DNA of 63,670 nt, filler included, from Stramenopiles sp. TOSAG23-6 (Eukaryota), in the NCBI GenBank assembly GCA_900128565.1. It is 41 parts of 41 records of this genome, joined end to end, with 100 filler letters (N's around TTAATTAATTAA, not from the genome) between each part and the next. Parts side by side here need not be neighbours in the genome. Positions count along the whole stretch, not along the records: positions 1 to 1,471 come from LT639014.1; positions 1,572 to 3,042 come from LT639015.1; positions 3,143 to 4,613 come from LT639016.1; positions 4,714 to 6,183 come from LT639017.1; positions 6,284 to 7,751 come from LT639018.1; positions 7,852 to 9,319 come from LT639019.1; positions 9,420 to 10,886 come from LT639020.1; positions 10,987 to 12,452 come from LT639021.1; 33 more parts are not named here. One strand, given 5' to 3'. The notes below the pieces were generated by a model, which was not told the DNA's origin, made no database searches, and saw nothing but the letters and a program-made list of their open reading frames with translations. Below are positions 1-62,861 of this stretch, piece after piece. The position numbers and the translations under genes are program-made. Every line of letters begins with the position of its first letter. Position 1 is the first letter of the stretch.

Positions 1-1376
1 ATAACCACTTGCTATGTATTGTGAAAAAATATATTTTTTTAGAATTGTGAAAAAATATAATCTTTTAATAAAAAAAAAATTCTACATAAATAAATCAATT
101 TTGAAAACATGTAAAACTGAAACGTCCAAAATGTACTATGAAAAAAAAAAACGAGAAAAAAAATAATAATTAGGTACAAAATTATCTATGAAAAAAAACA
201 TACATGTAAAAGCCAAGAGTCAACTTCATCTTTACTTTTATCTCCTAACATTTCACGGGCATATATGTATGTTTGGAAAATATTTCAAAAAACATTTGTT
301 AGGTACAAGATATTTTGAGAAAAAAAAATAAATTCGAAATTGAAAAAAATTTTTACCAAAAAAAAAAAAAAATTCGAAATTGAAAAAGAATAAAACATAC
401 AAGACACACAAATTCTCACGACATCATTAGAATCTATACTTGTTGGTAATGGTTCTTCAACAGCAGCACAATGGTAAAATTTTGCTAGGGACATCATTGA
501 GCTGTAATTTTCTTTGGATTCTTCATCANTNGCTGATTTGCATTTTTCTCGGAGAGTATCAATTGTTTTTTTCCCAGAAGAATCATTTTTTAGAATACCA
601 CCATCATAACCATTTTTTAATGCACTCATAAAAGTTGTTTCAAGAATTTCATCCATCGATTTTGCCGACATCAAACCTCCTAGTAAGCCTGGACTAGTTG
701 CTCCTGGTTTTTGTTGGGTCATCAAGTTAGGGTTAGGGTTAGGGTTAGGACTTTTTGTGATGGATGTCTTGTCTCCAAGATCTACAATACCCTGAGACGT
801 TCTTATACTGTTTCCTCTAGGAAGACTCCTATATGATTTGGATGAAGAAGTAAGATTTTTTTCCATACTTTTCGGGGAAAAACTCAGAGGAGAANTCNAA
901 TTGGTTTTCTTTTTTNTTGGTGAAATTCTTCTGCGCCTGGCCGCGGAATTCGCAGCGGCAGTTACAGCTAATGATGAACTACTCCCATTATTTGATAATA
1001 CTTTTGGTTCCATTGACTTTGGGTTTGAGGCTCTTCGTAACGCATCTTGGAAGCCTTTAATAGCGGCAGCATCGCTAGAACGTCGATTTCGGCTATCTCT
1101 TTTTCTAGGAAGAGCCGGAGCTGGTGAAGACTTTGCACGAGCCATTTCTAAAGTTTGCATGGGAGGTGGAGGTTCATCAGGCGGAGCAAATGAAGGAGGC
1201 GCAAAACTTGGAGGTGAAAATTTCGGATTTGGATGAGACGGCGGCTTTGGTATATACTGTTTAGGTGACGCCGCTTTTCGATTATTGGCACCAAATGCAG
1301 CAGAAACGTCAAAGAGAACATCATCATCATCACTACTATCATTACTATCACTAGAAAGGAAAGTAGATATCATCAT
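1..1376 (-). CDS. Unknown Ser/Pro-rich protein, 5' part; multi-exon (introns ~263-400 and within 14-203)
   Basis: Long ORF from ATG 1376. The frame continues (VS-YAREMLG) after removing GT..AT intron 263-400. Confidence 0.6.
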
Positions 1377-1470
1377 TCTCACAGTACCGTAGAACTATAA
1401 AACGTCTACTCAATGACGTATTCAGTTGATATTACGTAGATTCAATTCTTTATTCGAGTAAAAATTGAAT

Positions 1471-1571
1471 ANNNNNNNNNNNNNNNNNNNNNNNNNNNNN
1501 NNNNNNNNNNNNNNNTTAATTAATTAANNNNNNNNNNNNNNNNNNNNNNNNNNNNNNNNNNNNNNNNNNNN
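1471..1571. other. Artificial contig-joining spacer (N44-TTAATTAATTAA-N44); 40 such spacers, one every ~1.55 kb
   Basis: The same six-frame-stop 12-mer sits between fixed N runs each time. Contig lengths fall steadily from ~1471 to ~1440. Confidence 0.98.
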
Positions 1572-1711
1572 TTTTTTTTTTTTTTTTAAATTTTAATTTT
1601 TCATACGAAATTTTGTACCTAACAATTTTTTTTTTTTTTTGAAATTTTAATTTTTCATACGAAATTTTGTACCTAACAATTTTTTTTTGATTTTTTTTTT
1701 TCACAATACAT

Positions 1712-1839
1712 GGTTGCTTACTGAAAAAACATCCGTAGCAAAAACGATTCAGGAAAAAGCAAAATCTATGGGTGTCTCCGGAACGGTTCAATTGACATCA
1801 TTTTCTAGAATGATGATTGGAGAAAGTGTTGATGAGTAA
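1712..1839 (+). CDS. Last exon, probable mitochondrial elongation factor Ts C-terminus
   Basis: Follows a family intron end (CAATACAT). Reads EKTSVAKTIQEKAKSMGVSGTVQLTSFSRMMIGESVDE*, resembling the EF-Ts F.R...GE terminus. Confidence 0.5.
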
Positions 1840-59202: not shown

Positions 59203-60508
59203 GGGATCAAATGTCAAAAGCAAAGAAGAGAAGATTGCGTAAAATTGCACATCAACAAAAAGAAGAAGCAGCTGCTGCTATAATTGCTCAGAAAGAATGC
59301 GAAGAACGCAAATTAAAGGAAAACATGGTCAAAACTATCAAGGCTCGTATGCATCCCATGTACGTTTTCATCATTCTTTTCAAATTTATTTTTTTTGTAT
59401 GAAAATTCCGTATCTAATGATTTTTTTTACAAACAAAAAAAAAATATTTTTCACTATACATGTATAAAAGGTTTCACTTTAACTTGATGAATCTTAATCA
59501 ACCTATTGAAAAAGTACGTAGTGAAATGAAAGCGAAGTTTTTAGATTTGAGTGTGATTGATGGTAGTCGATGGGAAGAGCAAATTCCTCTACGTGGTCAA
59601 GGTACTCATCCAGATGCACCATGTATGTTTTATTTTTTTTCAATATCGATTTTTTTTCGTACGTAATTTTGTACCTAAGGGTTTTTTTTTTGAAATATTT
59701 TTCCAAAATACATCAAAATCATCAAAACGTCGAGATAGAATTAAAAGAGCCAAAATAAAATTAAGGCGAAATGCACCAATTGAAGAAAGATCATGTTGGC
59801 ATGAAGTGGGTAAAACAAATCCGCATTCGTTTGAATCAAAAAATAATCCAAAAAAAAAGACAAAAAAGAAAACTGTGGTTAAAATTGACAAACAAAAAAC
59901 TGTATTTATTTCTGGTTTGCCTCACCATGTTGGAATGAANAATGTCAGAAAATATTTTAAGCAATGTGGTGCTATAGCATTTATTACACTACCAAAGTTT
60001 GAAGATACAGGCCTTTCTAGAGGCATTGCTCAGGTGTATATTTTCATTATGAATTTCGATTTTTTTTTGTATGAAAATTTTTTTTATACGAAATTTTGTA
60101 CCTAACAAAAAAATAATTTGAAATATTTTTTCACAATACATTACTTTTACCAGGAAGGCTAGTGCAATGAGAGCCTTAGAACTAAATGGAGAATATTGGG
60201 GCTCTCGATATTTGGAAATTACACCACATGATGGAGGAGATCAGTGGCAACCAACGATGGACAAACCTGTTGGGTGTAAAACTATATTTGTAGGTAATTT
60301 AAGTTATGAAGTAGAAGAAGAAATTTTAAAGGAAGCATTTAAAGAAAGTGGTGAAATTCAATCACTTCGTTGGGGCACTGAAAAAGAATCTGGCGATTTT
60401 CGTGGATTTGCTCATATTACATTTTATAAGGAAGAAAGTGTTGGAAAAGCTGTAAAAATGGCTGGATCTATATTCTTAGGAAGACCTTTAAAAATTGACT
60501 ATGCTAAT
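59203..60508 (+). CDS. Two-RRM RNA-binding protein (nucleolin-like) fragment; introns 59360-59461, 59623-59713, 60036-60141
   Basis: TVFISGLP...RGIAQVTF; TIFVGNLSY...FRGFAHITF. Confidence 0.88.
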
Positions 60509-60689
60509 GTATGTTTTTTTTTTTTCAATTTCGAGTTTTTTTTTTCGTACGAAATTTTGTACCTAACGATTTTTTTTTGAAATATTTTTNNNNNNNNNNN
60601 NNNNNNNNNNNNNNNNNNNNNNNNNNNNNNNNNTTAATTAATTAANNNNNNNNNNNNNNNNNNNNNNNNNNNNNNNNNNNNNNNNNNNN

Positions 60690-62130
60690 TCTTTTTGGTG
60701 AAGGTATGTTTTTTTTTTTCAATTTCGAATTTATTTTTCTTTTCGTACGAAATTTCGTACCTAACAATTTTTAAAAAAATATATTTTTTCACAATATATG
60801 TTTAATCAAAGTTTTATTTGCTACAGAAACTTTTGCAATGGGTATCAATATGCCTGCCAAAACTGTTGTTTTTACTGCTGCTCGTAAATTTGATGGTACA
60901 GATACGCGATATATAACTGCTGGTGAATATATACAAATGTCTGGANNNNNNNNNNNNNNNNNNNNNNNNNNNNNNNNNNNNNNNNNNNNNNNNNNNNNAT
61001 GTCTGGACGAGCTGGTCGTACGTTTTCATCATAACCCTAACCCTAACGTTTTCATCATTCATTTCAATTTTTTTTTTTTTTTTAGTATGAAATTTCGTAC
61101 CTAATAATTTGTTTTTTAAAACATATTTTTTCATAATACATGTCGTGGGTTAGATGATCGTGGTATAGTTATACAAATGATTGATGAAAAAATGGAACCT
61201 GGTGCAGCACGTCAAATATTAAAAGGAGTTGCAGATCCTCTAAATTCATCCTTTCATTTAGGTTATAATATGTTATTAAATTTATTACGTGTGGAAGAAG
61301 CAAATCCAGAGGATGTATGTTTTATTTTTTTTATGATTCGCCAGTCTTTTCTTCAGTTTCAGACAGCTTCAATTTGTCCAAAGCTTAGAGAAGAGATTTT
61401 AAATTGTACAGAAAAAAGAGATTTAATTAATGTTCGAGATGAATCTTCTGTATCTTCATATTTTAAATTGACTGAACAAATGTCATATGAAGCACACAGT
61501 ATGATGAGACATATGTTTCAACCACAATATATTTTACCTTTTATGCAGCCTGGTCGTCTTGTCAAGATTAGAGATGATCATGGACAGGATTGGGGTTGGG
61601 GTGTAGTGATTAATTTCAGTAGGACACGGGGACGAAAAAGTAATGACAATGCACGTAAAAATGGGACGTCTACAAATATTACTGGTACTGAAGAGGAGGA
61701 TACATACGTCGCTGAATGTTTACTTCATGCTGCTAGTCGGCCAACTGGATCTATGGCCAAGGCGACACCATTTGTGGATTTGAAAGAAGACGAAAAACAC
61801 TTACAAAAAGATAAAAAAATGTCTACACATAAAAAACAGAAAAAGTCAAATAATCAAAATACCATTGTAAAAGATAGTGGTGAGATGGTCATTTTGCCAT
61901 TACTTCTTACCCAATTAGAAGCTGTGAGTACGGTACGTATTTTTGTACCTAAAGATCTTCGTATGCGTGAAAAACGAGACAGTGTTAGACGGTCTATTGA
62001 AGAAGTTCAACGGCGTTTTCCCAATGGACTTCCATTGTTAGATCCCTTGGAAGATTTGGGTATCGAAGACAAAGTAAGTTATTTTTTTCATTTTTTTTAT
62101 TTTTTTCATTTCTTTTATTTTTTCCTAGAT
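60690..62130 (+). CDS. MTR4: Exosome RNA helicase MTR4 fragment; GT-AT introns 60704-60799, 61018-61141; canonical GT-AG intron 62074-62128
   Basis: [64 protein letters not shown]. Confidence 0.95.
61018..61141 (+). mobile_element. Representative non-canonical GT-AT intron (introner-like family) splitting helicase motif VI
   Basis: GGT C|GTACG...TAATACAT|GT CGT restores GRAGRRG; there is no usable AG. Confidence 0.9.
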
Positions 62131-62230
62131 NNNNNNNNNNNNNNNNNNNNNNNNNNNNNNNNNNNNNNNNNNNNTTAATTAATTAANNNNNNNNNNNNNN
62201 NNNNNNNNNNNNNNNNNNNNNNNNNNNNNN

Positions 62231-62861
62231 ACCTCACGTACAATTTCACTTAAGAAAGTTTGTGGAGTCATTTCTTTTTCAATACGATAATTCAAGCAAT
62301 GATCATTTTTTTGGTTTTTGTGAGTACCAATAAAATAATTTGTCGGGCCATGCTTTGAAGAAACATCAATGAGCGGAATGAAAACAGTGAGACAATGAGG
62401 AGGGAGAGAATTCGTGTTTTTATCGTTGAGCTCTGAAAAAAGAATTTCTCCATCTCGATGAGTATGTATTTTGGAAAAATATTTTTTTTTTTTTCGTAAA
62501 AAAAAAATCATTAGGGACAAAATTTCGTACGAAAAAATAAAACATATATCTTGAACAGTACTACCTGGCATTGAAATGACTACCCCGGTCTTCACAAGAT
62601 AGCAAGCTGGACCAAGAAGACTTTTTATAATAGATCGCCAGCTAGAATTCCAACGAAGTTGCTTGAAAGGTGACTCATTCGTGTATTCAAAAAAATATAT
62701 CAAATTTGAAATTCGTTAAGTACGGAATTTCGTATGAAAAAAGTTGGAGGTAAAAAAATCATGATGAAAACGTACATATCAAGTATAACATCAAAACGAA
62801 GTGGACTTCTACACACAATTTCACCGCATTGTCCTCCTTGAATATGAACGATTTCTCTCAT
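62231..62861 (-). CDS. PhyH-like 2OG-Fe(II) dioxygenase fragment whose first 13 codons match the beta-tubulin N-terminus; introns 62681-62775, 62464-62547
   Basis: GVVISMPGS..Q..H.DG; LTVFIPL.DV....GPT....GTH; N-terminus MREIVHIQGGQCG. Confidence 0.75.

Follow-up and report, generated by a model that had tools for sequence, protein, structure and literature searches.

A repeat family in the genes of TOSAG23-6

We examined a 63,670-nt stretch of DNA from Stramenopiles sp. TOSAG23-6 (assembly GCA_900128565.1; hereafter the window), in which many copies of one short element interrupt unrelated genes. The copies are probably spliceosomal introns of a single introner-like family, with a normal 5′ splice site and a YAT 3′ splice site. 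The window consists of 41 unrelated contigs of ~1.45 kb each, ordered by falling length and joined by 40 linkers, which are N runs around TTAATTAATTAA (4,577 N in total). Its GC content is 0.23–0.36 per 2 kb; the source assembly is fragmentary, and the genome is that of an AT-rich eukaryote.

The contig at 59149-60589, the one contig that we compared with DNA and RNA runs, was covered at a share of 0.95 in a small DNA run (probably the source) and of 0.80 in an independent seawater metagenome. It also occurred at small shares in several seawater metatranscriptomes, and the organism is therefore a marine planktonic eukaryote. Two pairs of contigs are duplicates (14118-15580 and 15681-17143, 100% identical; 52979-54421 and 54522-55964, 99.9% identical) and a third pair is 97% identical (43702-45150 and 49891-51334), so the assembly is redundant or holds alleles or paralogues. 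No element was present in one member and absent from the other in any of the three pairs. The sole Rfam match in the window at the gathering threshold was a tRNA gene (2844-2916, minus strand); no snRNA was found there.

The repeat is real and far above chance expectation. With up to four mismatches allowed, its 21-mer core GTACGAAATTTYGTACCTAAC matched 51 times on the plus strand and 44 times on the minus strand, many matches being counted twice, since GTACGAAATTTCGTAC is palindromic. A 98-position nhmmer model, built from eight strict copies, gave 67 matches at E≤1e-3 in 25 of the 41 contigs, or about one copy per kb. The first-pass annotation of this DNA had put the number at ~80, which is slightly high for recognisable copies, although degenerate members that escape the profile do exist, such as 17635-17795 (-) and 57822-57904 (-). 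Its remark that many contigs break inside the element is borne out by 15 of the 82 contig ends, which lie within 25 nt of a match.

We curated 35 full-length copies, picked by hand and partly by a recognisable AYAT end. They are 73–193 nt long (median 104), with a median pairwise identity of 0.69 and a best-pair identity of 0.68–0.90 over whole elements, in unrelated genes. Two or three subfamilies can be told apart: one of the form GTATGTTTTATTTT...GAAATATTTTTCCAAAATACAT, a second of the form GTACGTTTTCATCATGAATTTC...TATTTTTTCACAATACAT, and a variant ending ...GTGATTTCGTGTTTTTTCACAATACAT. This subfamily structure, together with best-pair identities of 75–90% across unrelated genes, suggests that the family is mobile; no empty sites were seen in the window. 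Internal duplications of ~55–70 nt produced tandem branch-box modules, with two CCTAAC boxes, at 1598-1711 (+), 39276-39446 (-), 41747-41891 (-), 42668-42821 (+) and 38217-38330 (+). Judged by metagenome depth, which is not a copy number, there may be roughly ten thousand copies per genome.

Elsewhere, a 22-mer core matched one metagenome contig (L001), whose copy is 89% identical to the window copy at 56508, and no contig among prokaryote genome contigs. A viral occurrence was considered and rejected: a 17-mer was present in six viral contigs, while the profile matched in only two, weakly, and both were chance coding sequence. The 58-aa read-through peptide of the element had no match in a collection of 5.8 billion proteins (31–102 aa searched).

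The element is laid out as GTAYGTTTT, a T-run, CGTACGAAATTTYGTACCTAAC, a second T-run and TTTTYMMAAWAYAT. At the 5′ end, the 35 curated copies have G1 in 35, T2 in 35, A3 in 31, Y4 in 35, G5 in 30 and T6 in 34, followed by T-runs, and they match the GTRNGT 5′ splice site of U2-type introns (GT in 35/35). A CTAAC-type box, accompanied by T-runs and preceded by the palindrome GTACGAAATTTCGTAC, lies 29–47 nt from the 3′ end in 34 of the 35. The 3′ block has C(-10) in 27, A(-9) in 33, A or C(-8) in 31, A(-7) in 29, A(-6) in 27, T(-5) in 32, A(-4) in 32, C(-3) in 27 or T(-3) in 7, A(-2) in 35 and T(-1) in 34. The YAG of U2-type 3′ splice sites was not found at these ends: where the profile defines the end, it is AT in 31 of 34 copies, the exceptions being 31445 (TA), 33875 (TT) and 37881 (AC). 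An AG follows the CTAAC box unused in 12 of 34 copies, ~12–15 nt from the box by reading, which is too close to prove that AG is ignored.

The flanking exons are equally patterned. Among the curated copies the upstream exon has C(-3) in 20, A(-2) in 21 and T(-1) in 30, and the downstream exon begins with G in 24. The pattern CAT|GTATGT...CAT|G is thus the canonical CAG|GT...CAG|G with G changed to T at both places. Exon end and intron end are identical over at least 1 nt in 30/35, at least 2 nt in 20/35 and at least 3 nt in 13/35, the length not being fixed, and introns ending in TAT have no TAT before them.

The host genes are varied. Pfam domains recognised in them include the MTR4 stalk and barrel, MCM_N, XPG_I, LPMO_10, dynein AAA_6, SOR/SNZ, LNS2 (lipin), BEACH, RRM_1 and M20_dimer (ACY1-like), so that similar copies lie in genes of at least ten Pfam families, the distribution by which introners are recognised. 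Pfam agrees with the hosts listed in the first-pass annotation for MCM3, MTR4, XPG, lipin, ACY1, BEACH, RRM and LPMO; the TLDc assignment fell below the cut-off (20.3 bits against 24.5). The sense orientation reported there also stands. The longer flanking open reading frame (ORF) was on the element strand for 43 of the 67 nhmmer matches, on the opposite strand for three and undecided for 21. Of the three opposite cases, two belong to genes in which the other introns share their strand; the third, 19256-19316 (+), is truncated and lies outside the neighbouring ORF, to which it is antisense.

Excision from RNA and the splice register

Two copies are absent from a transcript of the RRM gene on the contig at 59149-60589. 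A 269-nt contig from the polyA metatranscriptome X8 (record 20; word depth 2, no mismatches) aligns with 59267-59356, continues directly with 59459-59622 and ends in 15 letters equal to 59714-59728. It joins 59356|59459 and 59622|59714, and what is missing is the elements 59360-59461 (+; GTACGT...CTATACAT; junction ambiguous over CAT) and 59623-59713 (+; GTATGT...AAAATACAT), the product being that of exact GT...AT excision. In DNA, by contrast with this RNA, the elements are retained: contigs of the independent seawater metagenome X2 span 59178-59674 and 60039-60533 unbroken, elements included. L001 likewise carries its copy within an ORF that stops at once when read unspliced and is restored to frame by exact excision. 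Neither of the two RNA junctions was matched among the 15 of 371 DNA joints listed. The first-pass annotation had named DNA without the elements, or an assembly artefact, as what would overturn it; the X2 contigs and L001 contradict both. Besides the two copies removed precisely from mRNA, three more are bridged without gaps by homology in MCM3 and MTR4.

A junction of this kind is ambiguous over the bases repeated at both intron ends, and we read the allowed shifts copy by copy. The RNA permits shifts of -3 to 0 at 59623 and of -3 to +3 at 59360. Junction 59713|59714 is compatible with an intron ending in AT, CA, AC or TA, never AG. In MCM3, the exons around 58017-58139 (-) correspond to residues 133-183 (upstream) and 185-221 (downstream) of chain 9vln_3, with the intron placed after ...DDEGNP(L) and before ETEFGW; the single residue between the two exons falls to the split codon ct|t, and shifts of -1 to 0 are allowed. 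The next copy of that gene, 57822-57904 (-; GTACGT...CGTACGAAATTTCATAAATATTTTTTTACAATACAT), is a short member without a CCTAAC box; it separates exons equivalent to 185-221 and 222-261, and its excision joins residue 221 to 222 with no gap. Excision of 60036-60141 (+; open for 31 codons upstream and 146 downstream), which splits the first RRM domain, yields RGIAQ-V-TF, which we take to be the RNP1 motif, and again allows -1 to 0.

The two MTR4 introns constrain the register from the other side. At 61018-61141 (+), inside GRAGR|RG, R460 of 6c90_A is the first residue of the downstream exon and the upstream piece ends ...MSGRAG plus c, so that only shifts of 0 to +2 keep RAGRRG, a motif found in 9 of the 9 homologues compared (of 33 matches). 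At 60704-60799 (+), after LFGE(G), the downstream exon opens with L408 of 6c90_A, and the glycine of EG-LIK survives shifts of 0 to +2; this glycine (GEG) is presumably invariant. The homologues of the MTR4 exons were at most 84% identical, and no transcript-derived protein of the organism was found among them to confirm the MTR4 junctions. The shifts permitted by the RNA-verified, MCM3 and MTR4 introns intersect at 0 alone, and the shared register is therefore GT...AT, the only one common to all pinned introns.

Single-junction arguments to the same end, made in the first-pass annotation, hold when the sequence is read directly: moving the boundary by +1 at 59623 creates TGA and by +2 at 58139 TAA, moving it by -1 at 60704 turns GEG into GEC, and moving it leftward at 61018 turns AGRRG into AGCRG. 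Its coordinates 60704-60799, 61018-61141 and 58017-58139 are reproduced exactly by curated copies. The claim that the introns are GT...AT can now draw on an RNA contig without two copies, gap-free protein alignments across three, and a reading-frame comparison of the whole curated set.

In that comparison, 25 of the 35 curated copies had 30 or more open codons to either side after exact GT...AT excision. The count fell to 11/35 when one extra base was removed and to 5/35 with two, and was 0/35 on the antisense strand. For several of the ten failures (60704, 61018 and 45256), a contig end or gap leaves hardly any flank. The 35 copies include all three intron phases, at 15:9:11. A scan of ORF junctions, which was too noisy for the purpose, gave no convincing ordinary GT-AG intron outside the family in the window. 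One candidate, 62065-62128 (GTAAGT...CCTAG), was rejected: a contig end cuts it, and it resembles the 5′ part of a family member. A GTAAGT in L001 was set aside too, as it need not belong to an intron.

Individual copies and other features of the window

The remaining copies were placed by the profile unless described as curated; paired figures give the open codons upstream/downstream after excision. The XPG gene holds four on the plus strand: 56145-56240 (26/115), 56508-56611 (98/200; RDSEH|VTTRM; the relative of the L001 copy), 57215-57320 (200/49) and, at the end of its contig, 57410-57503, which ends in ACAT and matches the full model (1-98). The lipin (LNS2) gene holds 11824-11924 (+; 200/112) and 12098-12200 (+; 69/69), and the LPMO_10 gene 53524-53615 (-; 177/40), with an identical copy at 55067-55158 in the duplicate contig. 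Within the BEACH-protein gene, 18134-18255 (-; 67/116) has an unused AG ~15 nt past the CTAAC box, and 17635-17795 (-) is a degenerate member (GTATCG...TACTCAC...CCAAAAATACAT), missed by the profile, whose excision by direct reading is in frame. Curated copies in the TLD-like gene end in TCAT (45988-46122, -; 129/51) and AAAT (46203-46319, -; 63/51), and a curated copy in the ACY1-like gene carries a telomere-like insert (3621-3758, +; 69/85).

Further plus-strand copies lie at 5102-5191 (129/200), 9142-9242 (76/26), 22091-22186 (54/88), 22432-22539 (curated; 167/78), 22617-22712 (ending ATAT; 37/20), 22757-22852 (ending TATAT; 84/168), 38026-38132 (121/37) and 42433-42532 (curated; ending GCAT; 93/49). 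To these can be added 38217-38330, a curated copy with two branch-box modules (65/184), and 37766-37881 (88/68), whose profile end is ACAC and which has an in-frame, AT-ending alternative 4 nt upstream, paired with an upstream GTATGT. A long curated copy at a contig start, 45256-45448 (+), has a single upstream codon, which makes its reading frame uninformative. On the minus strand are 32921-33011 (ending GCAT; 200/27), 35266-35366 (160/171), 41072-41181 (ending ATAT; 59/62) and 41747-41891 (curated; two branch-box modules; 53/40). Reading-frame support is weak for three others on that strand: 41548-41642 (ending ATAT; 18/76), 265-400 (7/26) and the curated 131-203, which is short at 73 nt (13/16). 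The other partial or degenerate copies, including those cut by contig ends, are spread over 14-62775 (among the 67 nhmmer matches).

Two further sequences resemble parts of the element. At 61315-61332 (+), 18 nt equal to the element's 5′ start (GTATGTTTTATTTTTTTT) stand in frame in MTR4 between ...ANPED and MIRQSF, where the homologues are ungapped; this could be the remnant of a deleted intron, translated as VCFIFF, or an assembly error. At 62464-62540 (-), a family copy has a changed first base and starts ATATGTTTT in place of GTATGTTTT, its 3′ end staying as usual (AAAATACAT); the ORF runs across it with no stop codon, and the copy may be dead and retained, or else an AT-AT variant.

Telomere-like blocks, (CCCTAA)n of 10–24 nt, are a separate feature of this DNA. 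The window has 34 of them, against 0–2 in 20 shuffles; examples are 726-749 (-), 8239-8257 (+), 14359-14406 (+), 43132-43153 (+) and 61032-61047 (+), and L001 has others at ~2260-2330. Many are inside ORFs, where they read in frame as NPNPNP, and others are intronic or intergenic. Direct repeats of at least 8 nt flank 7 of the 34 blocks, against 10% of random control positions; they reach 13 nt around the 13-nt insert in the MTR4 intron 61018-61141 and 20 nt at 43927. The blocks look like a second insertion process, by telomerase-type repair or a micro-element. Elsewhere in the window, 6284-6710 (+) is a tandem repeat in an open frame, its unit of ~35 residues (SKENIIHLLNKNKNTIFNNLYNMSIVFEINKKNYH) occurring at least four times. 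On the dynein heavy-chain contig, two ORFs in different frames overlap at 25353-25423 (-) with no element nearby; the overlap reflects a frameshift or an error of sequencing, not an intron.

Alternative readings, origin and relatives

Several observations weigh against our reading of the copies as spliceosomal GT...AT introns. The RNA support is one contig of depth 2 from one metatranscriptome, with two junctions, and for the contig 59149-60589 no junction-spanning RNA contig was found in the other three runs compared. The RNA libraries X5 and X7 hold element sequence joined to exons, which is either retained introns or carried-over DNA, and their other pieces for this contig are exon-only or element-only. 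The MCM3 copy 58295-58414 (-) fails to restore the frame, which needs two more bases removed, and the protein lacks ~10 residues ahead of KVSLVRPK; two copies have probably been collapsed here in the assembly. The assembly itself is fragmentary, with gaps and duplicate contigs.

The ends of the element add points of the same kind. Since AYAT took part in the selection of the curated copies, their 34/35 AT ends overstate the rule, and 31/34 is the less biased figure. A few copies could end in AG, namely 13867 (...AAAATAG|GT) and, similarly, those in the regions of ~8186 and ~14210. Between the box and the used end there is a median of 4.5 AT dinucleotides per copy, and YAT occurs there too; AT alone therefore cannot define the site, which must be recognised through a longer motif or by position. 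The copy at 57822-57904 is correctly spliced by homology and has no CTAAC box, so that the box is dispensable and only a candidate branch point. Nor do the curated copies have a convincing terminal inverted repeat or a target duplication of fixed length; the inverted terminal match is only 4–5 nt, (AT)GTA/TAC(AT).

Among the alternatives, removal by a non-spliceosomal, structure-guided route, as for the nonconventional introns of euglenids and hemistasiids, is improbable. It would account for the non-canonical 3′ end, and the intron ends are weakly complementary (GTAT, +1 to +4, against ATAC, -6 to -3), being paired in 3 of 8 minimum-energy folds; the central palindrome GTACGAAATTTCGTAC also has some wobble and compensatory variants. 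However, whole introns fold no better than their shuffles (z of -0.6 to -2.6 across eight copies), and the end helix lacks covariation, the GTACGT subfamily placing C(+4) opposite A. Mismatches in the palindrome hairpin are frequent as well: among 35 distinct sequences, 13 have A-C as the outermost pair and 6 have G-G at another. The borders are uniform, with GTAYGT, CTAAC and a T-tract, whereas those of hemistasiids are variable and GC-rich (PMC12621601).

Very unlikely, too, is a non-uniform register in which copies that follow an exonic AT are AT...AC introns (U12-type, or the rare U2-type AT-AC) and the others use other ends. AT stands directly upstream of 20/35 curated copies; there a shift of -2 gives ATGTATG...ATAC and the same mRNA, and both RNA-verified junctions are compatible with it. 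Among the 1,014 non-canonical U12-type introns of Physarum, moreover, GT-AT is a minority boundary, at 17% (10.1101/2020.10.12.336362). But AT-AC is impossible in 15/35 copies, including MTR4 60704 and 61018, MCM3 58017 and RRM 60036, where conserved residues hold the shift at -1 or above, so that two chemistries would be required for one near-identical element. The sequence motifs point the same way. At the -2 shift the 5′ site is ATGTATGT, not the U12-type RTATCCTT; C at +5 occurs in 0/35 copies, the consensus being GTAYGTTTT; and the CCTAAC-like box is 29–47 nt out, not ~10–15 nt from the end as for the U12 branch site TCCTTRAC.

That the elements are removed from DNA, as are the internal eliminated sequences of ciliates, or arose as an artefact of single-cell amplification or assembly, is scarcely credible: the assembly is poor, contig ends do fall at elements and 58295-58414 looks collapsed, but the DNA of X2 and L001 keeps exon, element and exon unbroken, the element-free form came from a polyA RNA library with no counterpart among the DNA joints listed, and the elements carry splice signals and are found in the sense orientation only.

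If the copies are spliceosomal introns, each would supply a 5′ splice site (G1 T2 A3 Y4 G5 T6), a T-rich body, a branch-like CTAAC box and a 3′ block, TTTTYMMAAWAYAT, and would be excised from the pre-mRNA at an abnormal 3′ splice site, YAT instead of YAG. The second step of splicing, or a U2AF-type recognition, would then have to accept an intron whose last base is U. As to origin, upstream exons end in (C)AT above chance, mirroring the CAT of the intron, and insertion at CAT|G-like sites is therefore the most economical hypothesis. A short target would be duplicated there, or microhomology used, and the downstream copy of the duplication, or else the end of the element, would supply the 3′ splice site. 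Going further, it is possible, though we hold it only tentatively, that the 3′ splice-site code of the lineage has changed from YAG to YAU: nearly all its introns would descend from one introner inserting at CAT|G, and its spliceosome would pair G(+1) with U(-1), ignore AG and read CAMAAUAYAU. Such a change could involve a divergent or lost U2AF35-type AG recognition and possibly an altered U1 5′ end matching the exonic U(-1).

Close parallels include the introners of Micromonas pusilla and Aureococcus, which likewise exist as many short, non-autonomous copies forming introns of unrelated genes in an aquatic host (PMC11282704, PMC12130899). There too the element brings one splice site, and the flank or duplicated target apparently the other; in Micromonas the target duplication provides the ag that is co-opted at the 3′ end (PMC11282704). 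Known introner families, in the same sources, end in AG or rarely AC, whereas the family in the window ends in YAT and is without a clear terminal inverted repeat or fixed duplication. The introns of Fritillaria borealis, derived from miniature inverted-repeat transposable elements (MITEs; AG-AC and AG-AT), share non-AG 3′ ends including AT (PMC11282704, PMC13326754, 10.1101/2025.08.15.670264). Exonic TAC precedes those ending in AC (PMC11282704), so that in both cases an exon triplet repeats the last triplet of the intron (TAC there, CAT here), pointing to a target duplication as the source of the 3′ site, and the host spliceosome of Fritillaria is described as adapted. Unlike the window family, with its canonical GTAYGT, its CTAAC box and one homogeneous repeat, the Fritillaria introns are highly diverse and have no 5′ GT.

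Other non-canonical introns offer further parallels. The marine protist Amoebophrya likewise has introners that are repeated elements with non-canonical borders (PMC7789003), but their borders and duplications vary and U1 is reported missing, whereas the window family has uniform borders and a 5′ site that matches the U1/U6 type perfectly. The U12-type GT-AT introns of Physarum polycephalum have the same terminal dinucleotides and are spliced (10.1101/2020.10.12.336362); they are, however, a small minority with an RTATCYTT 5′ motif and a branch site 9–12 nt from the end, and the window family has neither. Like the present family, the nonconventional introns of euglenids and hemistasiid diplonemids are abundant non-GT-AG introns of marine protists known from single-cell genomes, and a MITE origin has been proposed for such introns. 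Their ends are variable, often GC-rich and strongly pairing, in contrast to the AT-rich sequence, uniform ends and lack of a significant fold seen here. Single-cell genomes of uncultured marine diplonemids are also reported, with no transcript evidence, to hold abundant non-canonical introns.

We found no GT-AT-dominated intron family in the literature searched, which did not extend to the marine diplonemid single-cell study or to the supplementary lists of the introner surveys PMC9860276 and PMC12130899, so that a prior description is possible. Introner screens accept GT, GC, GA or AT with AG or AC, and families with unfamiliar ends are checked manually or discarded (PMC12130899). Because these screens use annotated genomes, a family such as this one, in an unannotated and fragmentary assembly, would probably be missed. 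We read the family as one of introner-type introns in which the dinucleotide of the 3′ splice site has changed.

The terminal AG is among the most conserved signals of eukaryotic gene expression, and its G pairs with the first intron G at exon ligation. If our reading is right, this lineage has tens of introns per 60 kb that combine a textbook 5′ site with a terminal U, and would be a natural experiment in the rewiring of the second catalytic step and of 3′ splice-site choice. The family bears, as does the triplet mirroring in Fritillaria, on the idea that the target duplications of transposons dictate new splice-site codes. There would also be a practical consequence: gene finders and introner screens that require AG would miss or discard such introns, and the genes of this organism, which is seen in several seawater metagenomes and metatranscriptomes, will be mis-predicted.

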